Assembly: GCA_963840645.1 (NCBI GenBank)
Contig: CAWIZL010000002.1
Span: forward strand, 273,663 to 337,662
Source of the DNA: Candidatus Doudnabacteria bacterium
GTDB lineage: Bacteria; Patescibacteriota; Doudnabacteria; UBA920; VMFF01
Direction of reading: 5' to 3'
DNA length: 64,000 nt
Below are positions 1-44,463 of this stretch, piece by piece. Position numbers and translations under genes: made by a program. A model generated the notes under the pieces. That model was given only the letters and a program-made list of their open reading frames with translations. It had not been told where the DNA came from and did no database searches. Within the stretch, counting starts at the first letter, position 1. Each line of letters starts with the position of its first letter.

Positions 1-949
1 GGTTTGTTAGGTGTACGGCAAGTCCGTACTTGCGTGACTCTGACATCATGCTGATGAACGCGTCCGTGAGCACGTTTTGGAACTCATCCACGTAGAGGTA
101 GCACGGTGCGCGCAGCGACTCTGGCAGAGCTGCGCGACCCAGAACTGCTGCCTGTAGCTTTGCCATGAGGATGAGGCCGAGCATCTGCGAGTTTGTCTCG
201 CCAATTTTTCCCTTGCACAGGTTGATGAGTACAATCTTCTCGTTGGCAATGGCATCGGCAATGCTGAACGCAGAGCTCTGCTGGCCAATGATGTTCGCCA
301 TGGTCGCGTTCGAAACGAAGCGCCCAAACTTTGATGAGAAGTAGTTGAGCATCTCAGAGCGGTGGAAGTCTGACGTCTTTGCCATTTGCCTATCCCAGAA
401 ATCTAGCACGGCTGGGTCTGTGACGTGGCTCACCGCCTGGCGCTCGTACTGCCTATCCACGAACAGGCGCGGGATGTCGAGCAGCGTGCCGCCACCTGGC
501 TGTGCCATTACGGTGAGGGCTGCACTGCGCATCCAGTGCTCGAACTGCGGGCCAATCACGCCGGTTTGCTCTGGGTCAAAAATTTTGTAGAAAATTTGAA
601 TTGCCTCAGAGACCAAAAAATCTTTTTCGTCCGGCGTGCGCCACTCGAGCAGGTTCATGCCGGTGGGTGTTTCCACGTTCGATGGATCGAACAGCACGAC
701 ATCGTCAATGCGGTTCTGCGGAATTACAGACAGTAGGTAGTCAATGGCCTCGCCGTGCGGGTCAACGAACACCACGCCACACCCGGCGCGAATGTCCTGC
801 AGCGCCATGTTCTGGTACAGCGTTGACTTGCCAACGCCAGTTTTGCCGATCATGTACGCGTGGCGGAAGCGGTCGGCGTGCGCCACCCCAACGAGCAATT
901 TTTTTTCTCGAACGTGGGCTACGCCCAGCTCGACCTCAAAGTTTGCCAT
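1..949 (-). CDS. VirD4/TraD-like coupling ATPase (FtsK/HerA superfamily), partial; the C-terminus lies beyond the left window edge
   Basis: Absent from the ORF track because there is no stop in the window. My own translation from the ATG at 949 gives MANFEVELGVAH..YMIGKTGVGKSTLYQN (Walker A)..CYLYVDEFQNVL (Walker B)..SESRKYGLAVHLTN and stays open to nt 1. Confidence 0.7.
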   Translation of the reverse strand, partial: MANFEVELGVAHVREKKLLVGVAHADRFRHAYMIGKTGVGKSTLYQNMALQDIRAGCGVVFVDPHGEAIDYLLSVIPQNRIDDVVLFDPSNVETPTGMNLLEWRTPDEKDFLVSEAIQIFYKIFDPEQTGVIGPQFEHWMRSAALTVMAQPGGGTLLDIPRLFVDRQYERQAVSHVTDPAVLDFWDRQMAKTSDFHRSEMLNYFSSKFGRFVSNATMANIIGQQSSAFSIADAIANEKIVLINLCKGKIGETNSQMLGLILMAKLQAAVLGRAALPESLRAPCYLYVDEFQNVLTDAFISMMSESRKYGLAVHLTN

Positions 950-954
950 GGCTT

Positions 955-1188
955 TCAGTCAATGCGAATTACCTTGGGCAGCATGTGCCGCTCCTCGAAC
1001 GTGTCGCGGGGGAGTGCCTGCGCAACATTTTCCCTTGCTGCTCTTGCACCCCGTGCGCCGTGCACAGCTCTTGTGTGCGCTTCTTCTGCGTGCAGTTTTT
1101 CCTGAATGGCATTGTAGCTCTTCAGTGAAATGAACTGCTTCACAGACTCGAGCTGCTCTAGGCGGCTCTGTGAGTTAATCTGTGTCAT
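955..1188 (-). CDS. Small hypothetical protein (77 aa)
   Basis: Track ORF. Its ATG overlaps the upstream Clp-like stop as ATGA (1185-1188), and it ends 5 nt before the VirD4-like ATG, which suggests translational coupling within one operon. Confidence 0.5.
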   Translation of the reverse strand: MTQINSQSRLEQLESVKQFISLKSYNAIQEKLHAEEAHTRAVHGARGARAARENVAQALPRDTFEERHMLPKVIRID

Positions 1189-2782
1189 ACGCTCTGGCTC
1201 ACCTTAATTTCAATCAAGCCCTCGCACGTCTGTTCAATGAACCGTTTTATTGGCCGAGCACCCATTCGTGGGTCTGCGAGCTCTTTAACCTTGGCGAGGA
1301 GCAGGCCAGGGTCAATGTTAAATTTAATGTTGTGCTGGGCAGTGCGCTCCTCAATTTTTTTAATCTCTAGCAGGGCAATGTTCAAAAGGCTTTCGTTCGT
1401 GAGAGGCTTGAATACAACAATCCCGTCAAAGCGGTTCAGAAACTCTGTTCTGAAGTACTTCTTCAGCAGGGGCATCAGGTCTTGTGCAGTTTCTGCACCC
1501 CGCACAATTTGCTCAATGCCAATGTTTGAGGTCGCAATAATGGTGGTATTTGTGAAGTTAACCGTTTTTCCTGATCCGTCCGTGAGCCTTCCGTCTTCTA
1601 AGACCTGTAGAAAAATATCGAACACGCGGGCGTTGGCCTTCTCAATTTCATCTAAGAGCACGAGAGAGTAGGGTTGAGATTTAATCGCGTTCGTGAGCTG
1701 GCCGCCATATTCGTGGCCAACGTAGCCGGGGGGGGCGCCCACTAAGCGCTGCACGGTGTGCGCCTCTGCAAACTCGCTCATGTCTATGCGCGTGAAGCTC
1801 CGCTCTGATCCGTAGACAAGGTCTGCGAGCACGCGCGAAAGCTCTGTCTTGCCGACGCCAGATGGTCCCAGGAACAGGAACGAACCGTACGGCCTGTTCG
1901 GGTTGCGCAATCCAATGCGGCTGTGGCGGATGACCTCAGCCACGACCTGCACAGCGTGCTCCTGGCCAATGACGCGCCTGTTCAGTTCAGCTTCTATGTG
2001 TAGAGGGGCAGCGGTGTTTGGTATGCCAGTTTTTTCTGAGAAGGCTGATTCAACGCTGCGTACGTCCAGCGTAACCAGCCCAGACATTTTTGCGTAGGCG
2101 AGCGATTCATCGAGCAGGTGCATGGCGCGCAGCGGCTGTGCCCTTTCACTGGTCATGCGGGCCTGACAGTTCTGCCGCACGCTGCACTGCGTCAGCTGGA
2201 ACCGCAATGCCGTAGCTTGTGCGAACGACGCCGACAGCGAACTAAAATTTCTGCTGTCTGTGCGCCGTCAGCTTCTGCCAGTTCAATGTCCTCAAAGTTT
2301 TGGAAGAACGCTGCGTGCTGCAGCGCGAGCTGCGCTGTACGCTGCATCGTTCACGGTCATGAATGAGGGAAATGCCCGGCGTGGCGAGCAGTGGCCCAAA
2401 CACTTGGCTCACCTCAAAGAGCTTGCGCTCTGGCACGACGCTCGCAAAGTCATCTATGAACACAATGGTGGCACGTGGAATTCTGCTGAACGCCTCATGC
2501 ACAGCGTGGCTAGAGTTCCCAGCCAGGAGGGTTTTGAGCTCTGCTGGTATCAAGTTTAACAATGGCCGTTTCCCCAAAGCCGCTAATTTTTTGCGTGGCA
2601 ACGCGGTACGCAAAACCCTCGACGAGCGCTGTCTTGCCAGTGCCGCTCTTGCCGCGCACGAGCACGTTGCCGTTGTACTGCCGCTGGAGGGTTCGGGTAA
2701 TCCTGCGCAGCTCTGCCTCACGGCCAGCAACGTTGCCGATAGCCTTGCGCAGCGCCTCTTTTTTTAGGTCGTAGTAGAGCAT
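1185..2782 (-). pseudogene. ClpA/ClpB/ClpC-like two-domain AAA+ ATPase without N-domain or long M-domain; the D1 domain is broken by about 4 frameshifts
   Basis: D1 Walker A is GKSGTGKTALVEGFAYRV (ORF 2510..2782) and Walker B is IVFIDDFASVV (ORF 2242..2730). The arginine-finger region ..FFQNFEDIELAEADGAQTAEIL lies in a third frame. D2 is intact (1185..2207: GQEHAVQVV..FLFLGPSGVGKTE..LVLLDEIEKA). Confidence 0.7.
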
Positions 2783-2789
2783 TTATTTT

Positions 2790-3593
2790 TTAGGCAGCCT
2801 GGCGAAGCTCTTGGAGCGCAGCGTAGGCTTCTTCAAGAGAGGTACCTGACTCACCATCGTTAGCTACGTCTTCTTGGGGGCTGAGCGCGTACGCCTGCAT
2901 AGTTGATCGCGCCTCGGGTTGCTCTGCCTCTGTTCTAGGGGCAGCCTCAGTTGTTGAGGGAAGTCCTGCTAGGCCAATGCCTGCTCTGCGAGCTTCAAAA
3001 ATTCTGCGGCCTTCTTCTACTGAGACAACTTTTGGCTCGCTGGTTTCGTGTACGGCCTCTTCGTGGTGGAAAAATTCTGGCGTAGAGGTTGCCATGTTCC
3101 AAGCTGCTTCCACCTTGGCATCCTCTGCCTTCTTCGCAAGCTCAGCGGGGGATAGCCCGCCCAGTTTTTTTTCGTTGCCGTTCTTCGCGATCTCTTTTGG
3201 CACCTCTCTTACTTCAATTGTAATTCTGTCTCCAGAAGAAGTGATGGTGTGCTCAAAGTGGGTGAAAGCATTTTCCGGGTTGTCGACGTGGCGGACAACT
3301 TTACCGTCAAGGGCTTTTATGTAGAGCGATAGAACTTTCTCGATAGGCGCACCGCCTGGCATTGCCTCACACGCAGCGCGCATTGACCCTGCATTGCTCA
3401 TGTAGTCTACGACGACTCCGTGCTCGTTGCGAATGAGAATGCCGTGGTACTCCTTACCTGGTGTGTCGTGGAACTCGTACGTTGGCTGCGGTGGTAGTTC
3501 CTCAATTCGATTCTCCACCTCGAAAAGTTTTTCGTTTACAGCCTCTTCTGTTTCTAGTTCTTCTGCAAGTGCAGTGCCCGTTGCTTCTGCCAT
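2790..3593 (-). CDS. Hypothetical acidic protein (267 aa)
   Basis: Track ORF with an ATG start, located 7 nt upstream of the Clp-like gene. I recognised no family. Confidence 0.55.
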   Translation of the reverse strand: MAEATGTALAEELETEEAVNEKLFEVENRIEELPPQPTYEFHDTPGKEYHGILIRNEHGVVVDYMSNAGSMRAACEAMPGGAPIEKVLSLYIKALDGKVVRHVDNPENAFTHFEHTITSSGDRITIEVREVPKEIAKNGNEKKLGGLSPAELAKKAEDAKVEAAWNMATSTPEFFHHEEAVHETSEPKVVSVEEGRRIFEARRAGIGLAGLPSTTEAAPRTEAEQPEARSTMQAYALSPQEDVANDGESGTSLEEAYAALQELRQAA

Positions 3594-3613
3594 AATTTTT
3601 GTGTTAAAAATTA

Positions 3614-3635
3614 GCGTACCCTGTGCAGGGTGCGC
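3614..3635 (-). terminator. GC-rich hairpin followed by a U-rich run, 20 nt upstream of the 3593 start codon (terminator or attenuator)
   Basis: GCGTACCCTG..CAGGGTGCGC forms a 10-bp stem with one G-U pair. In minus sense it is followed by TAATTTTTAA. Confidence 0.35.
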
Positions 3636-3817
3636 TGACGTTTGCCAGTGACCTTCCTGCTCGGGAAAAGTTTACAAGTTTGGTATCTGACTTCTCTCGC
3701 TGCTCTCAGCGCTCGAGTTACAGTTGCGGCACAGTCCCGGAATTTGAGCGTTGGCCCATCACCGGAGTTCCCAAATATTTTCTTACACTGGCATCATACG
3801 CCCTAGCTTTTTTCGTG

Positions 3818-4306
3818 TCAATCGAACAGCTCTCTGAGGCCGTCAGTGTTGTTGATGCTCTCAATGGTGATGAGCCTCACGAACAGCTTCTGCGACAGCT
3901 CTTTGAGCTCTTGCTCCACTTCCTGCGGCAGGGTGTACGGCGTGATCCATGTGCTGTGCTGCCACTTCTTGAAGCCGAGCTGCTTAATCTTGCTCCTTAA
4001 GTAGTCTCGCGTTGAGCGCTGCGATTCTGGAATATCGAACACAATCATTCTCCACTTGCCATCTCTGGTGCGATCAGCAGCTGAAATTGCTGCTTTTCCC
4101 TTTGGTGATACACGTACGTACTCAAGGTCTTTGTGCATGTACCGCTCTAGGTAGCCTCTTTTTTCAAGCTGGTAGAGCTGCGTGTACACTTTCCTGTACG
4201 ATTCAAATTTGTAGTGCGTCTTAATGAATGCGTAAATTGTTGATTTTCCCTCGTTTTCAACGATTTGGAGCATCTTTATTGAGTCTGATGACAGCTTTTG
4301 AGACAT
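3818..4306 (-). CDS. PaaX-like transcriptional regulator (winged HTH plus Cas2/VapD-like ferredoxin-fold C-terminal domain)
   Basis: The C-terminal motif GKWRMIVFDIPESQRSTRDYLRSKIKQLGFKKWQHSTWITPY is typical of the PaaX/Cas2-like fold. The N-terminal segment YTQLYQLEKRGYLERY resembles a wHTH. Confidence 0.6.
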   Translation of the reverse strand: MSQKLSSDSIKMLQIVENEGKSTIYAFIKTHYKFESYRKVYTQLYQLEKRGYLERYMHKDLEYVRVSPKGKAAISAADRTRDGKWRMIVFDIPESQRSTRDYLRSKIKQLGFKKWQHSTWITPYTLPQEVEQELKELSQKLFVRLITIESINNTDGLRELFD

Positions 4307-4461
4307 GTTGAACGTTTTCTTTTAATTACTGGTCTAATTATATTACGTATAGTGAACGTTCGTCAATAGTTTTGGAATAGTGCGCACAGTTTATACACAG
4401 ATTAACGCTTACGTTCGTAGATTAAAAAATTAAATTATTATCCTTAATCTTCGCACGGAGG

Positions 4462-4510
4462 CATTAAATTTTAATGTGTTCACGAGCGTGATTAAATTTA
4501 TTTTAATCAC
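4462..4510. promoter_or_regulatory. Two perfect AT-rich inverted repeats (candidate operators)
   Basis: CATTAAA-T-TTTAATG at 4462-4476 and GTGATTAAA-TTTAT-TTTAATCAC at 4488-4510. Confidence 0.45.
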
Positions 4511-4798
4511 TTTTCTAATTTATACTTCCGGTTAACATTTTCTGAAAAGTATTTGTACTCAAATGCAATCAAGCTTATGAAATAAAGTGATTACTTTTTC
4601 AAATATTACGAGAAACAACTTGAACTATTTTTAAAAAAATCGTGCAACACTACTTTTTCTTGCGTGGCACATTGAGGCAATACTGTCGCGCTGTTTTCGT
4701 TCATTTTGTTTCAAAAAAATGTTTCTAAAACTGTACACAATTTTCGCCGAAATTTCCTTGAGAAATTGAATGACTGCATATATAATTTAAGTGTTATT

Positions 4799-4822
4799 GG
4801 ATATCCGATATCGGAACGTTCC
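4799..4822. promoter_or_regulatory. Three overlapping perfect palindromes upstream of the giant gene (candidate operator over the -35 region)
   Basis: GGATATCC (4799-4806), CCGATATCGG (4805-4814) and GGAACGTTCC (4813-4822). A TGaTATAAA extended -10-like box sits at 4839-4847, with the GTG start at 4856. Confidence 0.45.
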
Positions 4823-4855
4823 ATCAATAAAACTGAGCTGATATAAAAACAAAAA

Positions 4856-6211
4856 GTGTCCGAAGAAAAATCTGAGAACAATTTAATTTCACTCTCGCAG
4901 GCGAGCGAGATAACGGGGTACAACCAAGACTACCTCGGGTTCTTGGCGCGCACTGGAAAACTGCAAGCTCAGAAGATTGGACGCAACTGGGTGACGAGTA
5001 TTTCTGCTGTGAATTCACTTCTGGGAAACAATTCTGAAGCTGGTACAAAAACGAGTGGTGCTGTGCGAGAGTCGGGAGCGCAACTGCCTTTGGCAGTTCC
5101 CACACAAGAAGTTCCAGTTGCACTAAGCAGAGAAGACTTTTTTATTGTTCCACCAAAGCTCAAGGTTTCTGCTGAACCACTCCCACCTGCGGCACCAGAA
5201 GGTTTTGCAGAATCAAACTTACTTGCAGTTAAGCAGGCAGCACAGGCAGAGCAGAGAGTTTCTGATGAGCAGCACGAGGCAGCAATGCGCGCGAGCATTG
5301 CAGCGGGTGTTGCCAGCAAGCTTGAAAATTTTCAGAAAGATTTTAAGGCTGAGCTCGGCGCGGTTGTAGGAACAGTTGTTGCAGAAAAAACCGCAGAGAG
5401 GTTTGCCGCAGACGCAGCACGTGCAGCTGCAATCGAGCAGGCAGCACAGCAAGAGGCAGCGCAGGCTGCGAAAGAAAAATCAAACGTTGCGTTCAGGAAC
5501 GCATCTGGTGCAGTTGAGGTTCTGCCGCTCGCGGCTGGAGTTGCAGCAGCGCGCTCTCTCGATACGGCAAAAATTTACAAGAGCTTCCAGAAAAATTTAT
5601 CGGCGCAGCAGGTGCGCTACGGCATCGCAGGTGCAGCCGCATCAGTGGCGATTGTGGCGCTCGCAATTTTCTTTGGGTACAGAACACTGAACACTGGAAT
5701 TCAAAAGCAGTTCGCCTCCCTGCCCGTTCGCACGCAGCAGCTTGTCGCTGTTCAACCTGAACCCCAGCAGCCGCAAACTGAGCAGCCACAAAAAATTGTT
5801 TACATCCAGGGTTCGCAGACCGTGAAGTACGTGCAGGGGCCTGGCCGGCGCAGCTGCCGCAGGGTTTGCCCAGGACAGCAAGGCCCAGCTGGGGCAGCTG
5901 GCTCGCCAGCCCAAGCGGGTGTGTTCAACCCGTCCAATGGGCTCATTGCATCTCCGTACGCTCCATCGGGCAACACAGCAAACGTGCCGGTTTCTCCAAA
6001 TAGTGGCCCGCAAACAATTTTTTCATCAGGCCAAGGTTCGTTCAACTCGGTGACAACGAACGATCTCACGGCCAACGATCTCACGGCCAGCACGGCATCG
6101 CTCCAGTCTGCAAGCATTCCGAGCCTGAACGCAGGCACGGAGAACGTTTCTGGCGCAGCGATATTCAGCCGGTCCTGTGGTGTTCACAGGTTCTGTCACC
6201 GGGCTACCTAG
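4856..6211 (+). CDS. Giant surface protein, N-terminal fragment: excisionase-like HTH, coiled/Ala-rich segment, one TM helix, Gly/Pro collagen-like patch
   Basis: ISLSQASEITGYNQDYLGFLARTGKLQAQKIGRNWVTS (HTH); YGIAGAAASVAIVALAIFFGY (TM). The frame breaks near 6170 and continues in ORF 6177..12485 (..NVSGAAIFS / PVVFTGSVTGLPSG..). Confidence 0.7.
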   Translation: MSEEKSENNLISLSQASEITGYNQDYLGFLARTGKLQAQKIGRNWVTSISAVNSLLGNNSEAGTKTSGAVRESGAQLPLAVPTQEVPVALSREDFFIVPPKLKVSAEPLPPAAPEGFAESNLLAVKQAAQAEQRVSDEQHEAAMRASIAAGVASKLENFQKDFKAELGAVVGTVVAEKTAERFAADAARAAAIEQAAQQEAAQAAKEKSNVAFRNASGAVEVLPLAAGVAAARSLDTAKIYKSFQKNLSAQQVRYGIAGAAASVAIVALAIFFGYRTLNTGIQKQFASLPVRTQQLVAVQPEPQQPQTEQPQKIVYIQGSQTVKYVQGPGRRSCRRVCPGQQGPAGAAGSPAQAGVFNPSNGLIASPYAPSGNTANVPVSPNSGPQTIFSSGQGSFNSVTTNDLTANDLTASTASLQSASIPSLNAGTENVSGAAIFSRSCGVHRFCHRAT

Positions 6212-9200
6212 CGGGTCAAGTTCCCTCATCAGCACGACCACGCCACAGCTCACGGCAGGCTACGATACCGCGCACGAGTGGTCAGCGTCTACGAACAGCG
6301 CTGGCGAAACGACGTTCACGCCATCGGTAGACAGTGCGTCAGCCTTCACGTTTACCTCATCAAACGGCACGCCACTCATTAGCGTGAATACCTCAGGCAA
6401 CGTGCTCACGGCGAGCGGCAACGTCACGCTCAGCAGCGCGACACCTGTGGTAGACAGCCCGAACGGCACGCTCGACATCAACACGGTCACGAACCAGCCT
6501 GTGACATTTGGCACTGGCACAATCACCTCAAACGGTGCAGTGGCCATCAGCGAGAACGCCGACGCTGGCAATGGACACACGTCCACTGGACTGAACGTGA
6601 ACATCACTGACAACACCACCGGCAGCGGCGCGTACACTGGGCTGGCTGTCACGGCAACCGGTTCTGGCGTTGGCACTGGCAGCAAGTACCTGCTCGACCT
6701 CACGCCCACGAACGCTTCCAACGAGGTGGTGTTTGACAACTCTGGCTCGCTCCACCCAACTGCGTCGCTGAGTTCAAACACAGCTTCCATTGGCTCGCCG
6801 TCAGACTACTTCAAGAATGGGTACTTTGACACCATCACCGCAAACAACATTCAGGGAACCGTGGTGAGCACCTCAACGTCTTCAACGAGTTGGACTATTG
6901 GGTCAACGCAAACTGGTGACGTGAATGAGTCAGTCATCTTCCAACGCGACAGCGGATTGAACAACGCCGAACTCCAGTGGAATGCTGGCAGCGGTGACCA
7001 GCGCTACCTGGGCGTGAACTACCCATTCAACGCAACGTACACCATCAGCAATTCGTCTATCGGCACAACTGCAAACCTGTACTCAGGTACGCTGACGAAC
7101 AACACAACGTCAGGCACGCAAAATTTATTGTCGCTGACTAACGCCGGCACGGGCACGACTGCCAGTGGCATCTACCTGAACAACACTGGCACGGGAACCA
7201 CTGCGCTGGACATTGCGGGCACGTGGACGAACGGCATTGTGACGAACGGTAACTCTATCAGCGCAGGTTCTGGCAGCATCAGCGCGGCAAACATTACGCT
7301 GTCTGGTCTGACCGCAAACACGTTTGTGTACTCTGGTGCTGGCGGCGCAATCACGGCTACGTCTGCGCCGACGAACGGCCAAGTACTCATTGGCTCAACG
7401 GGCACCGCGCCAGTTGCCGCTGCATTAAACACGGGCAACAATATTTTAATCACGGACGGAGCTGGTTCAATTACGGTTGCGACAGTGAACAACCCAGTGT
7501 TCTCAACGTCTGTGACCACGCCGCTGCTCACGAGCACAGCCACGTTGACCGTTGACTCTGGCTCTGGCAGCCCACTGGACATTGGCCCAGCGAACGCATC
7601 TGCGGTGAACATTGCCCAGCTCGGCGTGGCGACCAACGTGCTCGGCTCACTTGCCGTGACCAGCAACGTGACTGGCGGCACGTACAACACTGCCACAATT
7701 TCGGGCGGCACGTTGAGCGGCGGTTCATTAACTGCAACAACAGTTAATGGCGTAACGACCGCAAACATTTTGACAACAGGAACAGCATTTAGCGGAGATT
7801 TAACCGGCACGTACAATGCCTTAACCTTGAACACGGTCAACACCAACACCGGCAGCTTTGGATCCTCGACGGCAATTCCTACCTTCACGGTCAACGGCAA
7901 AGGCCTCATCACCGCAGCTGGCACGGCAGCGGTTGTTGCACCAGCTGGCACGCTCACAGGCACAACGCTCGCCTCGAACGTGGTGTCGTCTTCGCTGACC
8001 TCTGTTGGCACCATTGGCACTGGCACGTGGCAGGGGACGCCAGTTGCGCTGCAGTACGGAGGCACGAACGCCAACCTAACTGCATCGAACGGGGGCATCT
8101 TCTACTCAACAGGTTCTGCCGGCGCCATCTTGTCTGGCACGGCAACGCCAAACCAGGTGCTCTTGTCAGGGTCAACTGCTGCGCCATCGTGGTCAACGGC
8201 AACGTACCCTGCCACCACCACGGCGAACCAAATTCTGTACTCGTCATCGGCGAACACGCTGGCAGGCCTCGCAACTGCAGCGAGCGGCGTGCTCGTCACG
8301 TCGTCAGGTGGAGCACCTTCGATATCGTCAACTCTACCAGCTGCGGTGCAGGGCAACATTACCCAGGTCGGCAACGTGGCTGGCGGCACGTACAACGGCA
8401 ACACCATCACCACGGGCACGGGCACGCTCACGCTGAACGCAAACACGCTCACGGTTTCTGGCACATCGAACATCAACCAGGACGTGACCACAACGGCAAG
8501 CCCGACCTTTGCTGGCGCAACGCTCTCTGGCCAAACTACGAGCCAGGGCATTCTGCTGACGAGCAGCGCGGGTGCCATTTCAGAAACAGCGCAGGGAGCA
8601 GCAAACCAAGTTTTGACTGGACAGGCTGGATCCACGCCGACGTTCGAGAACATCTCAGCGCTCCTCAGCGCAGGCAACGACATCCAGGCAATCTCGGGCG
8701 CAACGCCGACCATAGCCGTTTCAACCACGCCGACGTTCACGAGCGTGAACGGCCTGGCAATCACGAACAATGGCACGAACACGTTAAACATTGCGGCAGG
8801 CAAGACATTAACGGTGAACAACTCGCTCGCCTTCTCTGGTACTGACGGAACCACGTTCACGTTCCCCGGATCGTCAGATACAGTTGCCACGCTCGGCGCA
8901 ACCCAGACGCTCACGAGCAAAACCTTGACCACGCCGCGCATTGGCACGTCAATTTTAGATGCAAACGGCAACACTATCCTCGGCCTCACGGCAACTACGT
9001 CGGCGAACAACTCTATCACGCTGGCCAATGCGGCGAATGGTTCAAACCCGAACATCAGCGTTGTGGCAGGCAGCGATGCAAACGCTGGCCTCAACCTCAC
9101 CACGAAAGGCACGGGCAGCTTCAACGTGAACTCAACTACCGCAAACTCGGCGACCATTGCCATTGCCCCGCAGGCTGGCGCGTCAGACTCAGCCACCATC

Positions 9201-12200
9201 CAGAACGCAGCCATCACCGCAAACCGCACGTACACCCTGCCAGACCAGAGCGGCACGTTCGCGGTTGCGGCAACAGGGCCAGTGCAGCTTTCAGCTGCTG
9301 GCACCATCACGTGCCCAACCTGTCTCGTGTCAGCTGGCAGCATCTTCACGCTGGCTGCTACCTCTGGTTCAAGCTCCACAATCAACCAGGGTTCAACGGC
9401 GACCATAGCCCAGGGCACGAACATCACGACCACGAGCAATGGCTCAGGCCAGGTGACTGTGGCGACAGTTGCAAACCCAGCGTTTGCAACATCGGTGACC
9501 ACGCCGCTCGGCATTGGCTCGACCAGCGCCAACGGCACGCTGACGCTCCAGGGCAACTCGGCGACCTCGGGCAACACTGGCACGAATGCAGCCATCAGCC
9601 TGAACGTGGGTAACTCTGGCGCCACGAATGCGCTCACAGCCCTCAATAACGGCGACGTCGGCGTTGGCACAAGTTCTCCGTCAGCACTGTTCTCGGTGGG
9701 CAGTGGCTCGCCGCTCCAGGTGGATAGCTCAGGCAACCTCTCAACATCGGGAAATATTTCGACTAGTGGATCAGGTACCACAACTTCAGCAGGCCTCTTG
9801 ACTGGCCAAGCTGGCCTCACGGTCACAGGTGCTGCCACGAATCTGAATGTTTCTTCAAACTTTGGGACAAACATCAACACTGGCAGCTCGAACGGTGCTG
9901 TCTCCATCGGCAACTCGTCAGCGGGGGCAGTCGCCATTGCCTCAGGCGCAGCCTCATCGTTTACGGTCACCTCAGCTGGCCTAACCCTCCAGACGGCGAC
10001 CTCGGGCACGCTCGCCGTTACCTCAGCTGGCGCACTGAACCTGACTGGGGCAGCAGCCTCGACGCTCGCGCTTCCGTCAAACACCGCGAACGCCCTGAAG
10101 GTGACTGACGGTACGAACGGCTACCTGACCTTGGACACGAGGACTACACACAGTGGCTCTTCGGCTTTGACGTTCGCCGTTGGCACGGCGCCGACCATTG
10201 CCTCAGCCTCAGGTGCCCAGTACATTGGCACCACCAGCACCCCGGGCACGTTCAACTTTACTGGTACAACGTCTCTGACTGGCACAGGCACAGGGGCAAC
10301 CATTGGATCGCTCTTCAACCAGCCCACGGTGAATGGCAACAACACGTTCACGGTTGCCGAAACAGACAACGTGCTGGTGAGCGGCCCAGCTAAGGCCACG
10401 TCGTCATCTGGCACAGAAACCATAACGAACGCGTACGGCCTCAACGTCCTCGCTGGCGCTGCCCTCAACGGTTCTGGCGGAGCAGTCACGAACGCGTACG
10501 GCCTCTCGGTGAACGCGCCGACTGGCGCCTCGGGCAACTACGCTGCTGTGTTCCAGGGTGGCAACGTCGGCATTGGGACGGCAACGCCAGCAGCACTCCT
10601 GTCGGTTGGTTCTGGCTCGCCGTTCCAGGTGAATGGCTCGGGCACCATTACCGGTGCATCGCAAACCCTCACGGCAACAACCAACCAGCTCACGCTCGGC
10701 ACAACGAACACCACCACCATCAGCGCCACGGCACCAGCAGCATCCCGTACGTACACCATTCCCGACGATTCGGCAGCGAGCGTGAACTTCGTGCTCGCGC
10801 CGACCTCTTCAACAGCCACGCAGGCGCTCTTCGCCACGACTACTTCAGGCTCGCCAGCATACCGCGCCATTGCAACCACAGATTTACCAAGCTCAGTGGT
10901 CACCGCCATCACCAACGGCACGAACGTGACAGGCAGCATCTCGGGGCAGACGCTCACCCTCGGCTTCACTGGACAGCTCGGCGTGGGGTCTGGCGGCACG
11001 GGCGCGGTCAGCATTACAGGTCTCGTCAAGGGCAACGGTGGGTCAACGCCATTCTCGGCAGCTGTACCTGGCACAGACTACCAGGTGCCGCTCACGTTCT
11101 CGTCTGGCCTCACGAACACCTCGAACACGGTCACCAATAACCTCAGCACAGGTATCAGCGGCAACCAGACCGTGCTCGGCTCGACCTCTGCCAACGGCAC
11201 GCTGACCCTCCAGGGCGACTCGGCGAGCGGCGGCAACACGGGGACGAACGTTAACGTGCAGTTCAATGTCAGCGACTCGGGCAGCACCACGGCCCTCGCC
11301 ATCACCAACAACGGCGATGTGGGCATCGGTACCTCAACCCCAACCGCAGCCGGTCTCGTCGTTGCCACAGCTGGGGCTGCCTCGCTCTCGGGCGAGGACG
11401 TTACCGGTGCCTGGTTCACCGTGGGCGGCAACGCGACCACTACGAAGCCGCAGCTCTTGGTTGAGCCAGCGGGCACAACTTCGGCCGCTTGGTCGACCTC
11501 AGGCACAGGCCTCGGCGTAAACGCTGGTTCCAGCTTTACGGGCAACCTAGTCGATCTCCAGGTTGGCGGCACGAGCGAGTTCACGGTGAACGCCTCAGGC
11601 GATGTCACGAACGGTACGTGGCAGGGTCAGGCAATCGGGGCGTCCTACGGTGGCATGGTTTACCCTGGCTCGGGCATTCCGAACTCAACTGGATCGGCTT
11701 GGGGTACGTCGTACACGACCACGGGTGGAGGCACGATCTTAGCTCTGAGGAACTCGCCGACTTTCGCAACCCAGGTCACTGACCCACTGCTCATTGGTGC
11801 GGCCGCGGCCAACGGCACCCTGACGTTCGAGGGCAACTCGGCGACTTCGGGCAACACGGGCACGAACTCGGCTATCAGTTTCAACGTTGGGAATTCGGCG
11901 AGCACGAATGCAATCACGATACTCAACAACGGCGACGTGGGAGTTGGCACGGCCACAGCGGGCGCAAACCTCGACGTCGAGTCCACGACGACCTCGGGCA
12001 CCATCATCCAGGGCGCCGCCCCCTCCGCGGTCACCCTCGCCGGCACGCTCACCGGCCTGAACCTGAACCTCTCGACCAACGTGACGGCCACGGGCGAGTC
12101 GGTCACCGGCGCCGCCGTCACCCTGCCCGCGGTCACCAACACGGGGGCATCCACGTACACGTACAACGGCCTCTCGGTCACCGGCAGCGCCATCGTCCAG

Positions 12201-12485
12201 AACACGGGCGCCGGCACCGACAACTGGAACGGCTTCGCCATCGCCATGCCGAACCAGACCCAGACCACCGGCACGGTCACCTCGACCGGCATCGCCATCA
12301 CCGGCGGCACGGTGACGTCCGGCACGGCGTACGCGCTGACCACGTCGCTCTCGGCCGGCGCCGTCGGCTTCGGCACCACGGCCCGGGCGCCCGCCTCGAC
12401 GTCGAGTCCACGACGACCTCGGGCACCATCATCCAGGGCGCCGCCCCCTCCGCGGTCACCCTCGCCGGCACGCTCACCGGCCTGA
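6177..12485 (+). CDS. Giant surface protein, central fragment (2102 aa; Thr/Ser/Gly/Asn-rich, tail-fibre-like beta-repeats)
   Basis: Uninterrupted 6.3-kb ORF. A recurring ~70-aa module ..ANGTLTLQGNSATSGNTGTNAAISLNVGNSGATNALTALNNGDVGVGTSSP.. occurs 3 times. The GNVGIGT..P motif is typical of tail-fibre/adhesin proteins. Confidence 0.8.
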   Translation: MVFTGSVTGLPSGSSSLISTTTPQLTAGYDTAHEWSASTNSAGETTFTPSVDSASAFTFTSSNGTPLISVNTSGNVLTASGNVTLSSATPVVDSPNGTLDINTVTNQPVTFGTGTITSNGAVAISENADAGNGHTSTGLNVNITDNTTGSGAYTGLAVTATGSGVGTGSKYLLDLTPTNASNEVVFDNSGSLHPTASLSSNTASIGSPSDYFKNGYFDTITANNIQGTVVSTSTSSTSWTIGSTQTGDVNESVIFQRDSGLNNAELQWNAGSGDQRYLGVNYPFNATYTISNSSIGTTANLYSGTLTNNTTSGTQNLLSLTNAGTGTTASGIYLNNTGTGTTALDIAGTWTNGIVTNGNSISAGSGSISAANITLSGLTANTFVYSGAGGAITATSAPTNGQVLIGSTGTAPVAAALNTGNNILITDGAGSITVATVNNPVFSTSVTTPLLTSTATLTVDSGSGSPLDIGPANASAVNIAQLGVATNVLGSLAVTSNVTGGTYNTATISGGTLSGGSLTATTVNGVTTANILTTGTAFSGDLTGTYNALTLNTVNTNTGSFGSSTAIPTFTVNGKGLITAAGTAAVVAPAGTLTGTTLASNVVSSSLTSVGTIGTGTWQGTPVALQYGGTNANLTASNGGIFYSTGSAGAILSGTATPNQVLLSGSTAAPSWSTATYPATTTANQILYSSSANTLAGLATAASGVLVTSSGGAPSISSTLPAAVQGNITQVGNVAGGTYNGNTITTGTGTLTLNANTLTVSGTSNINQDVTTTASPTFAGATLSGQTTSQGILLTSSAGAISETAQGAANQVLTGQAGSTPTFENISALLSAGNDIQAISGATPTIAVSTTPTFTSVNGLAITNNGTNTLNIAAGKTLTVNNSLAFSGTDGTTFTFPGSSDTVATLGATQTLTSKTLTTPRIGTSILDANGNTILGLTATTSANNSITLANAANGSNPNISVVAGSDANAGLNLTTKGTGSFNVNSTTANSATIAIAPQAGASDSATIQNAAITANRTYTLPDQSGTFAVAATGPVQLSAAGTITCPTCLVSAGSIFTLAATSGSSSTINQGSTATIAQGTNITTTSNGSGQVTVATVANPAFATSVTTPLGIGSTSANGTLTLQGNSATSGNTGTNAAISLNVGNSGATNALTALNNGDVGVGTSSPSALFSVGSGSPLQVDSSGNLSTSGNISTSGSGTTTSAGLLTGQAGLTVTGAATNLNVSSNFGTNINTGSSNGAVSIGNSSAGAVAIASGAASSFTVTSAGLTLQTATSGTLAVTSAGALNLTGAAASTLALPSNTANALKVTDGTNGYLTLDTRTTHSGSSALTFAVGTAPTIASASGAQYIGTTSTPGTFNFTGTTSLTGTGTGATIGSLFNQPTVNGNNTFTVAETDNVLVSGPAKATSSSGTETITNAYGLNVLAGAALNGSGGAVTNAYGLSVNAPTGASGNYAAVFQGGNVGIGTATPAALLSVGSGSPFQVNGSGTITGASQTLTATTNQLTLGTTNTTTISATAPAASRTYTIPDDSAASVNFVLAPTSSTATQALFATTTSGSPAYRAIATTDLPSSVVTAITNGTNVTGSISGQTLTLGFTGQLGVGSGGTGAVSITGLVKGNGGSTPFSAAVPGTDYQVPLTFSSGLTNTSNTVTNNLSTGISGNQTVLGSTSANGTLTLQGDSASGGNTGTNVNVQFNVSDSGSTTALAITNNGDVGIGTSTPTAAGLVVATAGAASLSGEDVTGAWFTVGGNATTTKPQLLVEPAGTTSAAWSTSGTGLGVNAGSSFTGNLVDLQVGGTSEFTVNASGDVTNGTWQGQAIGASYGGMVYPGSGIPNSTGSAWGTSYTTTGGGTILALRNSPTFATQVTDPLLIGAAAANGTLTFEGNSATSGNTGTNSAISFNVGNSASTNAITILNNGDVGVGTATAGANLDVESTTTSGTIIQGAAPSAVTLAGTLTGLNLNLSTNVTATGESVTGAAVTLPAVTNTGASTYTYNGLSVTGSAIVQNTGAGTDNWNGFAIAMPNQTQTTGTVTSTGIAITGGTVTSGTAYALTTSLSAGAVGFGTTARAPASTSSPRRPRAPSSRAPPPPRSPSPARSPA

Positions 12486-13670
12486 ACCTGAACCTCTCGA
12501 CCAACGTGACGGCCACGGGCGAGTCGGTCACCGGCGCCGCCGTCACCCTGCCCGCGGTCACCAACACGGGGGCATCCACGTACACGTACAAGGGCCTCTC
12601 GGTCACCGGCAGCGCCATCGTCCAGAACACGGGCGCCGGCACCGACAACTGGAACGGCTTCGCCATCGCCATGCCGAACCAGACCCAGACCACCGGCACG
12701 GTCACCTCGACCGGCATCGCCATCACCGGCGGCACGGTGACGTCCGGCACGGCGTACGCGCTGACCACGTCGCTCTCGGCCGGCGCCGTCGGCTTCGGCA
12801 CCACGGCCCGGGCGCCCGCCTCGACGTCGAGTCCACGACGACCTCGGGCACCATCATCCAGGGCGCCGCCCCCTCCGCGGTCACCCTCGCCGGCACGCTC
12901 ACCGGCCTGAACCTGAACCTCTCGACCAACGTGACGGCCACGGGCGAGTCGGTCACCGGCGCCGCCGTCACCCTGCCCGCGGTCACCAACACGGGGGCAT
13001 CCACGTACACGTACAATCGCTCTCGGTCACCGGCAGCGCCATCGTCCAGAACACGGGCGCCGGCACCGACAACTGGAACGGCTTCGCCATCGCCATGCCG
13101 AACCAGACCCAGACCACCGGCACGGTCACCTCGACCGGCATCGCCATCACCGGCGGCACGGTGACGTCCGGCACGGCGTACGCGCTGACCACGTCGCTCT
13201 CGGCCGGCGCCGTCGGCTTCGGCACCACGGCCCCGGGCGCCCGCCTCGACGTCGAGTCCACGACGACCTCGGGCACCATCATCCAGGGCGCCGCCCCCTC
13301 CGCGGTCACCCTCGCCGGCACGCTCACCGGCCTGAACCTGAACCTCTCGACCAACGTGACGGCCATGGGCGAGTCGGTCACCGGCGCCGCCGTCACCCTG
13401 CCCGCGGTCACCAACACGGGGGCATCCACGTACACGTACAATGGCTTCTCGGTCACCGGCAGCGCCATCGTCCAGAACACGGGCGCCGGCACCGACAACT
13501 GGAACGGCTTCGCCATCGCCATGCCGAACCAGACCCAGACCACCGGCACGGTCACCTCGACCGGCATCGCCATCACCGGCGGCACGGTGACGTCCGGCAC
13601 GGCGTACGCGCTGACCACGTCGTCGTCTGCTGGCAACGTTGGTTTTGGAACAACCACACCACTGGCAGCC
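11968..13670 (+). repeat. Four near-identical tandem copies of a 426-bp (142-codon) unit inside the giant gene
   Basis: TCGACGTCGAGTCCACG recurs at 11971, 12396, 12821 and 13246, giving an observed period of 425. Only the third junction has ACGGCCCCGGG and stays in frame; the first two have ACGGCCCGGG. Track ORFs 12506..12910 and 12931..13164 are repeat fragments. Confidence 0.9.
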
Positions 13671-15656
13671 CTCGACGTGAACGGATCCATTGTTCAAACC
13701 TCTGCTGTCTTTGCCACAGAGACGTTGGCGACAGCTACCCAAACGGGCGGTTGCTCTGGCGTGGGCACCACGATCACGACTACGCAGGCAGTGTTCCAGG
13801 ACAACACGCACGTGCCGCTGACCTCTCAGATTTACTACAACACGACCAGCGGCAAGCTGCTCCACGCCACGATCAACGCAGTGGTAACCTGCACTGACGG
13901 CAGCTCGAACAAGTGGTACGTGCTCACGCTCGGCAATGCAGTGGCATCGCAGGCTGCCACAGACACCGCAACCCTGTACACGCCAGCGGGCAACCTCGGC
14001 AACGCAACGTCTGGCTTCACGAACAACCTGTACGCGGTAAACGGCCACTTCGTGACAGCTACAACGAGCGGCGGCTTCGACATTGCAGAACAGTACCAAA
14101 CAGCTGATGCAACCATGGGCGCTGGGGACGTGGTGAGCGTTGATCCTGCGAACGCTGACTACGTTGCAAAGTCTGGAACCGGATACGACAGCAGCACCAT
14201 TGGCGTTGTATCAACGACACCTGGTTTGACGCTCGGTGCAAACCTCGGCAGCACGTGGCAGAAAGTTGCGCTGACTGGGCGCGTGCCTGTGCTCGTGAGC
14301 GATGAGAACGGTGTACCTGAGCCTGGCGATTTCCTGACTTCATCTGCGAGCTTGCCTGGCTACGCCATGAAGGCAACGCGATCTGGGAAGGTGATTGGCG
14401 AGGTGCTTGACTCGTGGGCAGCTGGCGAGCAGCAGACGCAAAATGTGAATGGCCTGACCATTCATACTGAAAACCTGGACGTTGACCTGCACGTTGGGTG
14501 GGAAAATATTGGCAACACGTTTGTGATGGGTGAACAGGATCCTGTTGCCGCACTGGCGAGCACGCAGCAGAGCACTGGCAGTGGCGCCGCTGGCCTGGAC
14601 GCCTCACCAGACTCTGACACGTTCATCATCCGCCAGAACTTGGCGACTGGTGCGCCGCTGGCTGACATCCTGCAGCTGCAGTCTGGCAGTGTCACGCGCC
14701 TGATGGTTGCATCGTCTGGTGCGACCACCATAAACGCGAGCGTGGCTGATACGAGCGCCAACGTGTTTGCCATCAGCAACAACGGCACGAGCGACTTCAC
14801 CATAAGCGCGAGCGGCAACGTGTTTGTTGCAGGCACGCTGGTCGTGCAGCAGGACATTGCCAGCTTGGGCGAGGTGCTGGGCAGCACGGCAATCTTGGCG
14901 CAGAACGCTGACACAGCTGCGCTGCACCAGGGCGAGGTGGTAATGCTGAGCGGTGCTACGGCAACGCCGGTTGTTGGCAGTAATCCTACTATTACCGTGG
15001 TGGCTGCTGTTGCGCCTTCGGGCAGTTCTCCTGCCGAGCCCGTGGTAATTGGAGTTGTGGATCGTAACCTGTCTGAGTTCAACATTCCAGGTGCGCCAGC
15101 TGCATCTGGCTCGGACGTGACTGTGGTTGCGCCGGGCGAGTACGCTGATGTGGTGACAGCTGGCACGTACGCTGACCTCGACGTTGATGCGAGCTCTGCT
15201 GCAATCAGCGTTGGCGACCGCCTGACAATTTCCTCTCATGCCGGCTACGTCCGCAAGCTGGTGTTGCCTGCAGACGCTGGCATGCCAGTGGTGGGTGTTG
15301 CCCTCGATGCCCTGGCAAGTGGCACTGGCCACGTGCGCGTGTTGCTGACGCTCGGAGCTGGCGCAGGCTTTGGTGGCAGCGGTGCGAGCGGTAGCTCTTC
15401 GACCGGCACATCTGGCACGCAGGGTCTGGATCCATCAACGTACGGACAGGGTTTTGGCTGGGCACCTGGCCAGACTGGATCAAGCTCTCCAACGCCAGCG
15501 CCGACCGATGCGCTAGTCCCGACCACAACCCCTACACCTTCACCGACCGATGTCCCTACGCCAACGGATACACCTGCCCCAACCGTGTGCCCAACCCCAA
15601 CGCCAGCTGCAGCGCCAACGCCCGTGCCTACCGATACGCCAGCAGCAGGTCAGTAG
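13095..15656 (+). CDS. Giant surface protein, C-terminal fragment (last repeat, tailspike/peptidase-G2-like region, Pro/Thr-rich tail)
   Basis: The segment GFDIAEQYQTADATMGAGDVVSVDP..YDSSTIGVVSTTPGLTLG resembles the C-terminal autochaperone regions of tail spikes. The protein ends PTPAPTDALVPTTTPTPSPTDVPTPTDTPAPT. Confidence 0.75.
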   Translation: MPNQTQTTGTVTSTGIAITGGTVTSGTAYALTTSLSAGAVGFGTTAPGARLDVESTTTSGTIIQGAAPSAVTLAGTLTGLNLNLSTNVTAMGESVTGAAVTLPAVTNTGASTYTYNGFSVTGSAIVQNTGAGTDNWNGFAIAMPNQTQTTGTVTSTGIAITGGTVTSGTAYALTTSSSAGNVGFGTTTPLAALDVNGSIVQTSAVFATETLATATQTGGCSGVGTTITTTQAVFQDNTHVPLTSQIYYNTTSGKLLHATINAVVTCTDGSSNKWYVLTLGNAVASQAATDTATLYTPAGNLGNATSGFTNNLYAVNGHFVTATTSGGFDIAEQYQTADATMGAGDVVSVDPANADYVAKSGTGYDSSTIGVVSTTPGLTLGANLGSTWQKVALTGRVPVLVSDENGVPEPGDFLTSSASLPGYAMKATRSGKVIGEVLDSWAAGEQQTQNVNGLTIHTENLDVDLHVGWENIGNTFVMGEQDPVAALASTQQSTGSGAAGLDASPDSDTFIIRQNLATGAPLADILQLQSGSVTRLMVASSGATTINASVADTSANVFAISNNGTSDFTISASGNVFVAGTLVVQQDIASLGEVLGSTAILAQNADTAALHQGEVVMLSGATATPVVGSNPTITVVAAVAPSGSSPAEPVVIGVVDRNLSEFNIPGAPAASGSDVTVVAPGEYADVVTAGTYADLDVDASSAAISVGDRLTISSHAGYVRKLVLPADAGMPVVGVALDALASGTGHVRVLLTLGAGAGFGGSGASGSSSTGTSGTQGLDPSTYGQGFGWAPGQTGSSSPTPAPTDALVPTTTPTPSPTDVPTPTDTPAPTVCPTPTPAAAPTPVPTDTPAAGQ

Positions 15657-18819: not shown

Positions 18820-19214
18820 GGGGATGACGGATCTTGACAGTGAACAGATCCACGCAAGTACGCAAGCCGGGCACTCTCAGAACCCCGTAACATTACTGAG
18901 AAAACTCCAACTGGCAACTTTGTTGCTAAGGTGAAGAATGCGTTCGCTCCGGCGTTCGCCTTCGCACCTGCTATGGCCTAGTCACTAGGTCGTAGCGCGC
19001 GACCTCGGCGTGCCTCGCGCCTTGGCCACCGCGCTTTATATAGAGGCTCACCTTGCTGGATGTGCACGCGACAGCAGGGGACACCACAGCGCGCAGACCT
19101 GCTGGTTAGTTTGTCCGTTTGTTAGCGTGCAGGCACTCAAAGCGGACTAAGCTTGTGATCAACTCGTGTGGTGACAGTCGCTGAGACCCAGTTTAACTCT
19201 CGGCATCTCCACCA
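18820..19214 (+). ncRNA. ssrA: tmRNA (transfer-messenger RNA)
   Basis: The 5' end GGGGATGACGGATCTTGACAG pairs with the 3' end CATCTCC-A-CCA, including a G3-U pair. AACTGGCAAC parallels the Bacillus resume region. The tag ORF is GGC AAC TTT..GCT ATG GCC TAG. Confidence 0.85.
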
Positions 19215-19599: not shown

Positions 19600-19720
19600 C
19601 TTTTACAATTAAAAAACTTGTTTCTATTTAAAGGTTGTGGATAAACTCAAATAGAAATTTGCATTTTTAAAATGGTGCTATAATAATTATAGTGTTAAAT
19701 AAGCATTAACGATAAATTGT

Positions 19721-44353: not shown

Positions 44354-44374
44354 CGTGCTGGGTGGGCAGGCAAA

Positions 44375-44408
44375 GACCTCAGGGGCAGCAAGCTCTGAGG
44401 CCTTTTTA
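44375..44408 (+). terminator. Weak internal terminator followed by a promoter (TTGCGT-17-GATAAT, 44424-44452)
   Basis: CCTCAG (44377-44382)..CTGAGG (44395-44400) followed by CCTTTTTAT. Confidence 0.45.
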
Positions 44409-44463
44409 TACACAGCAGAGCGTTTGCGTATTGACCCTGCGTGTGCGATAATTTAAGCAAAGT

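Follow-up and report, generated by a model that had tools for sequence, protein, structure and literature searches.

Regulators of the MarR family act through palindromic operators that overlap the -35/-10 elements or the transcription start within a shared intergenic region. Escherichia coli PaaX represses its own promoter Px by steric hindrance, and divergent promoters via the inverted repeats TGATTC-N27-GAATCA (PMC9493321). Here we describe the intergenic region at positions 4307-4855 of a 64-kb stretch of contig CAWIZL010000002.1 from a Candidatus Doudnabacteria bacterium (the whole stretch that was analysed, hereafter the window), which separates the gene of a PaaX-like regulator from a divergent gene for a giant surface protein carrying a helix-turn-helix (HTH) domain of the HTH_17 type. 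Comparison with related loci suggests, with a probability that we put at about 0.72, that this spacer is a shared control region with two back-to-back sigma-70-type promoters, each with its own conserved candidate protein-binding sites: the CGnnCG elements O1, O3 and O2 and box R on the regulator side, block G and the candidate operator M2 on the side of the giant gene (Table 1).

Results

Conservation of the gene pair and of its spacer

About 25 related loci from uncultured Patescibacteria (candidate phyla radiation, CPR), labelled Doudnabacteria, Saccharibacteria and others, were compared. They were gathered by exact-protein look-up, a scan of species-representative genomes and a metagenome scan, with a hidden Markov model for the HTH domain. 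In more than 24 loci the regulator gene and the HTH_17 gene lie side by side in divergent orientation, even where regulator identity falls to 33-40%, and an AT-rich homologous spacer is present in every relative examined, with 230-940 bp between the regulator start and the start of the HTH-coding sequence. Conservation within the spacer was mapped by the alignments A2, A3 and A4 and by k-mer tracking. At third codon positions, the regulator gene is identical at a fraction of 0.51-0.61 to its three closest relatives and of 0.31-0.40 to orthologues of about 62% identity, the latter being close to saturation; the spacer blocks that survive are therefore under selection. The central part of the spacer, about 300 bp, varies among the relatives both in sequence and in length (about 150 to 500 bp). 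An earlier annotation of this DNA (the original prediction) had described the spacer as a control region between divergent genes, a description upheld by the retained pairing and by the conserved blocks.

The regulator promoter and the CGnnCG elements

The predicted promoter of the regulator gene scored 11/12 in a promoter scan, with a predicted start near 4330. Its -35 hexamer appears as CGTCAA (TTGACG on the coding strand) in 25/25 spacers; counted from the regulator ATG it lies at +48 to +67, or at +113 in the L003 group. TATTAC (GTAATA on the regulator strand) overlaps the -10 and shows no variation in alignment A4. The CGnnCG of O1 is found at offset 0 in all 14 sequences of the orthologous clade, representing about 11 independent lineages. 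O3 has its CGnnCG at offset 94-97 in 10 of these 14 sequences, with the second CG invariant in alignment A4, and the ACGnnCG of O2 recurs at offset 126-127 in 9/14. The distances of 95 bp between O1 and O3 and of 126 bp between O1 and O2 correspond to 9 and 12 helical turns, and shuffled spacers contain 0.2-1.4 CGnnCG each. Extended by CAA, O1 (ACGTTCGTCAA) occurs only once in the 64-kb window, and O2 overlaps the left arm of an inverted repeat at 4488-4510 that is described below.

O1 includes most of GAACGTTC (4354-4361), one of the palindromes from which an autoregulated regulator had been proposed. A conserved site over the regulator -35 is what autoregulation leads one to expect, and to this extent the proposal stands; what is conserved, however, is CGnnCG and not the palindrome GAACGTTC. 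The accompanying idea of a shared GAACGTT operator has to be abandoned, as the motif is private to this genome and only its copy at the -35 is conserved.

Upstream of this -35 lies box R, at a nearly constant distance from CGTCAA in every orthologous lineage (Table 1). It holds a perfect DnaA-box-like 9-mer, TTATACACA, at 4391-4399, and when read on the regulator strand (TGTGnATAAnnTGTG) it presents two TGTG 11 bp apart (TGTG-N7-TGTG). Box R is probably bound by a second factor, be it an activator, a response regulator or DnaA.

The giant-gene promoter, M2 and block G

On the opposite side of the spacer, the predicted promoter of the giant gene likewise scored 11/12, with a predicted start near 4793, about 460 bp from that of the regulator. 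Its -10 is conserved in position in the form TAnnnT, preceded by TG in several relatives. M2, a palindromic element of 20 bp, reads TTATTGGATATCCGATATCG in the window, where it occurs once, and GATATCGGATATCCGATATC in the clade consensus, with the half-site AT[AC]TCGGAT. It begins 5-8 nt past the -10 (mostly 7) in 11 lineages and is also present in the distant loci L100, L104, L109 and L112. Exact M2 half-sites number 31 in 256 kb of paired loci, nearly all of them within the spacer, versus 9 in 718 kb elsewhere; their density is thus about tenfold higher in paired loci, the other loci showing roughly the chance rate. A run of overlapping palindromes at 4799-4822 had originally been placed upstream of the giant-gene -10. 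It lies instead at about +1 to +30, past the conserved TATAAT at 4781-4786, and TATAAA at 4842-4847, which we took to be the -10 meant in the original prediction, is unconserved in the relatives.

Block G, upstream of the giant-gene -35, consists of direct repeats and a second TnCACA (TnCACAA) box. Its AATGTTTCTAA is present in 6/6 lineage groups tested, GTTTCTAA is invariant in alignment A3, and the block-G motif has a single occurrence in the 64-kb window. Block G probably recruits an activator of the giant gene.

Other arrangements of the two genes were also encountered. In L056 (4150-4860) and L077 (5270-6700) a PaaX_M gene lies 1-1.5 kb upstream of the HTH_17 gene and points in the same direction, and the promoters of these HTH_17 genes carry an M2-like site, TTGATATATCGGATG...TATAAT in L056 and TATAAT-N6-ATCGATACCC...ATCTCGACCCTCGAGAT in L077. 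In L107 (1700-2000) and L145 (1350-1640) a PaaX-like gene diverges from a gene for a small signal-peptide protein of 201-212 aa, which is not of the HTH_17 type.

Table 1. Control region, candidate elements and flanking genes, in window coordinates
Feature	Position	Strand	Description
PaaX-like regulator gene	3818..4306	-	162 aa; winged HTH and Cas2-like PaaX_M domain
Intergenic control region	4307..4855	.	549 bp, 30% GC
Regulator promoter (predicted)	4337..4366	-	-35 TTGACG 4366-4361, 18-nt spacer, -10 TATAAT 4342-4337
O1 (candidate site)	4356..4363	.	ACGTTCGT, CGnnCG; overlaps the end of the -35 and the start of the promoter spacer
Box R (candidate site)	4385..4399	+	CACAGTTTATACACA (CACAGnTTATnCACA); 29-30 nt from -35 CGTCAA in every orthologous lineage
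Extra ACGTTCGT copy	4411..4418	.	55 bp from O1; CGnnCG at offset 55 in the window and L085 only
O3 (candidate site)	4451..4458	.	TCGCACGG, CGnnCG; 95 bp from O1
O2 (candidate site)	4480..4491	.	TCACGAGCGTGA, palindrome, core ACGAGCGT; 126 bp from O1
Block G (candidate site)	4707..4740	+	TGTTTCA 4707-4713, TGTTTCT 4720-4726, CTGTACACAA 4731-4740
Giant-gene promoter (predicted)	4758..4786	+	-35 TTGAGA 4758-4763, 17-nt spacer, -10 TATAAT 4781-4786
M2 operator (candidate)	4794..4813	.	TTATTG-GATATCC-GATATCG; about +1 to +20
GGAACGTTCC 10-mer	4813..4822	.	adjoins M2; lineage-specific, absent at this position in all relatives
Giant surface-protein gene	4856..15656	+	GTG start; HTH_17, one transmembrane helix, Thr/Ser/Gly-rich repetitive region

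Composition and palindromes of the spacer

The spacer is the longest stretch of the window free of open reading frames (ORFs), followed by 455 bp that correspond to the transfer-messenger RNA (tmRNA) gene, and it is also the most AT-rich part, with 30% GC against a window average of about 55%; both properties had been correctly recognised in the original prediction. The tmRNA gene, at 18820-19214, has an Rfam match of 67.8 bits and is absent from the ARAGORN output.

By inspection of the sequence, every repeat that had been reported was found at its place. GAACGTT lies at 4310-4316, GAACGTTC at 4354-4361 and GGAACGTTCC at 4813-4822; the run at 4799-4822 is made up of the overlapping palindromes GGATATCC (4799-4806), TCCGATATCGGA (4804-4815) and GGAACGTTCC; and two inverted repeats are present, CATTAAATTTTAATG at 4462-4476 and GTGATTAAA-TTTAT-TTTAATCAC at 4488-4510, the latter with a 9-bp stem. 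Dinucleotide-preserving shuffles of the spacer served as the chance baseline. The palindromes do exist, and their density only marginally exceeds chance for such AT-rich DNA: 8 perfect palindromes of at least 8 nt were counted versus 4.2 +/- 2.0 in the shuffles (P = 0.07), three such palindromes inside 24 nt gave P = 0.05, and hairpins gave P = 0.11. The recurrence of GAACGTT is non-random, three copies being reached in 0.3% of the shuffles; counted by strand, GAACGTT/AACGTTC occurs 5 times in the 549-nt spacer versus 19 times in the remaining 63 kb. Two of the copies form GAACGTT-N38-AACGTTC (4310-4361), which brackets the regulator -10 and the predicted start; the region has no other pair of inverted, G+C-containing 7-mers that are 15-59 nt apart. 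No counterpart was found by eye in the relatives, and the arrangement is particular to the window.

On the palindromes, such single-genome statistics alone are suggestive at best, and conservation is the real test. A motif search in orthologous regions, which the original prediction had set beforehand as its test, gave a divided result: the relatives retain GGATATCC/CGATATCG from the palindrome run and CGTTCG from the 4354 copy, but not the GAACGTT at 4310 next to the regulator ATG, the GGAACGTTCC 10-mer or the hairpins at 4462-4476 and 4488-4510. A possible on/off control of the giant gene, raised at the same time, found no counterpart at the spacer or its flanks. Short or tandem repeats are absent from the spacer, in which the longest homopolymer is A7; the only imperfect inverted repeat around M2 is 76% complementary, and the signature of an invertible element is lacking; and no recombinase gene is found among the flanking genes examined.

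Three further candidates were considered and rejected. A sigma-54 promoter, TGGCAC...GGCA at 4666-4681, has a spacing that is one off and is unconserved; a CodY-like palindrome at 4537-4550 is unconserved in position among the relatives; and conserved coding by small ORFs of 32-46 aa within the spacer is excluded by indels among the relatives.

The PaaX-like regulator

The regulator matches the Pfam family PaaX_M (PF20803) at residues 80-153 with an E-value of 2.5e-21 and 76 bits (cut-off 24). Against TIGR02277 it reaches 30.7 bits, far from the cut-off of 264.55, over positions 35-160 of the 279 positions of the model. Its AlphaFold2 model, with a predicted local distance difference test (pLDDT) score of 84.8, shows a winged HTH (helices at residues 7-19, 24-31 and 37-49, followed by a beta wing at 53-66) and then a ferredoxin-like domain of the order beta-alpha-beta-beta-alpha-beta. 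The best fold match in the PDB is E. coli PaaX (8a39, E = 7e-5), with many MarR-family structures next; a profile of the regulator found no match among PDB sequences, and the fold search alone gave matches. For the N-terminal domain of PaaX, Pfam reported no match in the regulator, only a weak one to LexA_DNA_bind, and the C-terminal effector-binding helical domain of PaaX is missing, as the protein ends at residue 162. There are no paa catabolic genes near the regulator gene, whose neighbours encode a ClpB-like ATPase, a TrwB-like protein and the giant surface protein, and neither TGATTC nor GAATCA of the PaaX-type TGATTC-N27-GAATCA operator occurs within 4251-4900. The name 'PaaX-like', already used in the original prediction, is correct for the fold, as the PaaX_M match and the similarity to 8a39 confirm, yet the regulator is not a PaaX.

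The giant surface protein

The giant protein carries its HTH_17 domain, of the excisionase/MerR type, at residues of about 9-57 and a hydrophobic 21-mer helix at 255-275; its Thr/Ser/Gly-rich repetitive region has no Pfam match. An HTH followed 150-260 residues later by a single transmembrane segment was found in 12 of the 18 proteins tested. Giant homologues with an N-terminal HTH reach 3148-4888 aa in a protein library search. An exhaustive protein search with this HTH_17 subtype, which addressed family size and protein lengths without genomic context, returned 2392 homologue clusters at E <= 0.001 and 490 at E <= 1e-10; many of these homologues have about 300 aa and two matched stretches, and fewer are giants of 1500-4900 aa, whose HTH is N-terminal. 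A word-index homologue search with the HTH N-terminus gave 2 matches.

In this assembly, the ORFs at 4856-6211, 6177-12485 and 13095-15656 are pieces of one gene. The first break is a one-base frameshift at about 6169-6171: the intact ORF of the relative L087 reads straight through the junction, its alignment following frame 2 as far as 6169 and frame 3 from 6171 onwards, and the site has no homopolymer. The second break falls inside a 425-bp tandem repeat at 11969-13622 (3.9 copies, 99% identical, 70-72% GC). As 425 is not divisible by 3, the reading frame rotates from one copy to the next; a stop is reached at 12485 in copy 2, the frame is back after three extra copies, and the ORFs 6177-12485 and 13095-15656 share one frame. 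The repeat could be either an assembly artefact or a recent gene-inactivating amplification; if it is real, gain or loss of copies would switch the gene on and off.

Neighbouring genes and further observations in the window

Downstream of the regulator gene (window 1-4306, minus strand) lies a conserved cluster that encodes X, a variable low-complexity protein, a ClpB-like AAA+ protein, a 79-aa protein and a TrwB/VirD4-like coupling ATPase; in L081 (6001-12514) and L085 the cluster ends with an OmpR-type response regulator gene. The cluster may serve to export or assemble the giant protein. Right where the regulator gene ends (3793-3821, minus strand), a strong promoter-like site, TTGACA-17-TATGAT, scores 11/12, and the downstream cluster may have its own promoter, leaving the regulator gene monocistronic. 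At 1185-2782 (minus strand), the gene of the ClpB-like AAA+ protein is broken up into two or more ORFs (2510-2782 and 1185-2207). L081 has an uninterrupted copy of 551 aa; the copy of L085 is fragmented too. Together with the breaks in the giant gene, this suggests either indel-prone sequencing or gene decay.

DnaA-box-like 9-mers are also found far from the spacer. Four of them (at most one mismatch) lie within 700 bp at 44262-44948, where the ORFs at 42.5-47.8 kb resemble genes for membrane or secreted proteins and not replication genes, and a perfect TTATCCACA lies at 19636-19644, within the part of the window that ranks second in AT content (19.4-19.7 kb).

Discussion

Based on the observed elements, with their positions, spacing and conservation, on the domain content of both proteins and on the gene pairing, we infer transcription starts, binding partners and the direction of regulation, and propose the following hypothetical circuit. 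On the regulator side, the PaaX-like protein would bind O1, O3 and O2 as a dimer or higher oligomer; on O1 it would occlude its own -35, and cooperative binding or DNA looping from O1 to O3 and O2 would result in negative autoregulation. We assign these three sites to the PaaX-like protein because a -35 site with phased upstream partners is the classic layout of a cooperative or looping autorepressor, and because PaaX represses its own Px. One observation backs the assignment of CGnnCG to the regulator: only the clade whose regulators have this recognition helix shows the first CG of the motif. On the other side, a protein bound to M2 would block open-complex formation or promoter escape. The preferred candidate for this protein is the cytoplasmic HTH_17 domain of the giant protein itself, whose membrane-inserted product would thereby feed back on a costly gene; the PaaX-like regulator is the second candidate. 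Taken as a whole, a scenario in which the giant protein regulates itself through HTH_17 on M2 and is throttled by its envelope-inserted product, while its PaaX-like neighbour would control only its own operon through CGnnCG, is put forward tentatively, as we consider it rather more likely to be wrong than right.

The conservation patterns slightly favour HTH_17 as the binder of M2 and the regulator as the binder of CGnnCG. Across the lineages that share M2, the HTH_17 domain is about two-thirds identical (by hand count) and the winged HTH of the regulator about 22%, and wherever the HTH_17 signature shifts, the canonical M2 has changed or disappeared, namely in the L003 group (DYVTY, KIGNNWVI), in L091 (KIGDSVVV) and in the short-spacer clade (RNW[FY]T). 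The M2-like sites at the differently arranged HTH_17 genes of L056 and L077 also speak for HTH_17. We would give the HTH_17 domain a little less than even odds of being the M2 binder; the regulator comes second at lower odds, closely followed by another factor, and the divergent regulator is not the sole candidate and perhaps not the best. A number of points weigh against the proposed circuit. The giant protein's own HTH_17 match (PF12728) in the window has 16.2 bits (E = 0.013), below the cut-off of 27, the equivalent residues scoring 40.7 bits in the orthologue of L003 and 21.0 bits in that of L002. The covariation of M2 with HTH_17 amounts to about three independent events and is confounded by phylogeny, and the frameshifts in the giant gene of this assembly may mean that the circuit is decaying in this strain. 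The spacers of L107 and L145 retain an M2 half-site, ATCTCGGAT or ATATCGGAT, beside PaaX-like genes without an HTH_17 neighbour, which fits the regulator or a factor encoded elsewhere as the binder. In the distant L109 and L112 a half-site lies upstream of the regulator -35, near the regulator promoter, as expected of a regulator of two promoters; a recognition-helix residue of the regulator (Tyr versus Phe) also tracks M2 in distant clades; and the private but non-random GAACGTT copies (4310, 4354, 4814) could be regulator sites that link both promoters. The last four of these points are equally what one would expect if the divergent PaaX-like protein were the single repressor of both promoters, acting through GAACGTT-type sites and/or M2, an explanation that also draws on the conserved divergent pairing and on the resemblance of GAACGTT-N38-AACGTTC to the TGATTC-N27-GAATCA layout of PaaX. 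Nevertheless, we regard a single repressor as the less likely explanation: the copies at 4310 and 4813-4822 are absent in every relative, no CGnnCG occurs at the giant-gene promoter, M2 is identical where the winged HTH of the regulator has so far diverged, and M2 itself has diverged where the recognition helix is unchanged (L003 group) or differs by one substitution (L091).

Three other explanations fare considerably worse. M2 could act in RNA, as a 5'-terminal hairpin with an 8-bp stem and an AUAU loop that stabilises the long mRNA or controls translation, as it lies at the predicted 5' end of the transcript, its consensus could pair as an 8-bp stem, and one pair changes from A-U to C-G on both sides in 2 of 11 sequences. 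This is very improbable, since paired cells (79.3%) equal the shuffled mean, the covariation score is 0.095 versus 0.102 in shuffles, folding of the leader is no better than that of shuffled sequences (z = -0.42) and no Rfam family reaches the threshold (best E-value 0.28; null on both strands). In addition, uncompensated changes break the stem in L081 and L085, and isolated half-sites stand in promoter spacers or untranscribed positions (L007, L085, L109, L112, L056). An origin of chromosomal replication (oriC) or a locus titrating DnaA, with TTATnCACA as DnaA boxes and the AT-rich DNA as unwinding element, is at least as improbable. The spacer is indeed very AT-rich and lies between divergent genes, box R holds the perfect TTATACACA at 4391-4399, the box has 0-1 mismatch to the DnaA consensus in most orthologous lineages, and block G adds a second TnCACA; the boxes of the window clade are nearly all on one strand, and the L003 group has one-mismatch matches on the other strand also. 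Against this stand the presence of only one box with at most one mismatch in the region, the count for the whole window (33 versus 37.6 expected by chance) and the lack of a dnaA signature in six-frame translations of the window. Moreover, the boxes are fixed relative to promoter elements, the TGTG-N7-TGTG of box R exceeds what a DnaA box needs, the central 300 bp are variable, distant relatives have the gene pair without boxes, and there is no GC-skew switch here, though the left flank comprises only 4 kb. The least probable account is that the palindromes are products of chance in an AT-rich spacer and have no specific function. It agrees with the marginal palindrome and hairpin counts (P = 0.07 to 0.11) and with the lack of conservation of two hairpins and of two of the three GAACGTT copies, and it is the best description of the inverted repeats at 4462-4476 and 4488-4510. 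For O1, O2, O3, box R, block G and M2 it is contradicted by blocks that are invariant despite saturated synonymous sites, by conserved spacings and by the strong enrichment of M2.

Divergent promoter regions with operators are nothing unusual in themselves. What is new is the pairing of a PaaX relative lacking the effector domain with a giant membrane protein that bears its own HTH, together with two unrelated candidate operator systems in one spacer; a giant protein that throttles itself would be a further novelty. We found no literature on such a pairing, on a spacer with two systems or on self-throttling of this type, and none on PaaX in Patescibacteria or on a Cas2-like PaaX; a preprint on CPR pili proved to be unrelated. 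Transcriptional control in CPR bacteria (Patescibacteria) is almost unknown because these organisms are largely uncultured, and the locus supplies a defined, evolutionarily validated set of promoters and candidate operators for a conserved gene pair, one of them coding for a giant envelope protein with a probable role in attachment. Binding of the giant protein to its own operator would explain why so many large CPR membrane proteins start with HTH_17. Such self-regulation would define a new class of autoregulator, tethered to the membrane as part of an adhesin-like giant protein and encoded by a gene of more than 10 kb, and it could be widespread in CPR bacteria, given the number of homologue clusters of this HTH_17 subtype. 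If the regulator binds M2, the locus would be a clean case of an effector-domain-less PaaX relative re-used for the control of a surface protein.

Among characterised systems, E. coli PaaX with its operators at Px, Pz/Pa and Ppga shares with the regulator an N-terminal winged HTH and a Cas2-like middle domain. It differs in its length of about 305-316 aa and its C-terminal phenylacetyl-CoA-binding domain, which the 162-aa regulator lacks; at the locus described here, found in an uncultured CPR host, CGnnCG elements at offsets 0, 95 and 126 bp stand in place of TGATTC/GAATCA, and paa genes are absent. MarR-type divergent autorepressors are likewise small dimeric winged-HTH proteins, and many structures of this family resemble the regulator in fold. 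In contrast to these, the second domain of the regulator is a Cas2-like ferredoxin fold instead of the helical MarR dimer interface, and the spacer is unusually long (549 bp), with two unrelated sets of motifs.

For box R, two comparisons suggest themselves. The DnaA boxes (TTATNCACA) of oriC and of DnaA-regulated promoters are matched by the conserved perfect 9-mer at 4391-4399 and by the similar box in block G. Unlike them, the boxes here form no cluster, have no dnaA or dnaN nearby and are locked to promoter elements, and box R carries an extra conserved TGTG 11 bp away. The pho box is laid out as CTGTCAT-A/T-rich-CTGTCAY, with direct repeats about 11 bp apart. On the regulator strand, box R, as CTGTGTA-TAAA-CTGTGCG, resembles this general arrangement of PhoB/OmpR boxes, and an OmpR-type gene ends the conserved cluster in L081 and L085, whereas at the present locus it falls outside the window; box R, however, does not replace the -35 but precedes an intact one.

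The membrane-bound regulators ToxR, CadC and TcpP offer a parallel to the giant protein, with a cytoplasmic N-terminal DNA-binding domain, a single transmembrane helix, an extracytoplasmic part and an operator at the promoter of the locus. The DNA-binding domain of the giant protein, for which binding is predicted, is of the HTH_17/excisionase type and not an OmpR-type winged helix, and where these regulators have an outer sensor domain it has more than 3000 aa of repetitive protein. Finally, the position of M2 at +1 to +20 suggests that the giant protein, should it bind there, would act by repression and not, like ToxR, CadC and TcpP, by activation.

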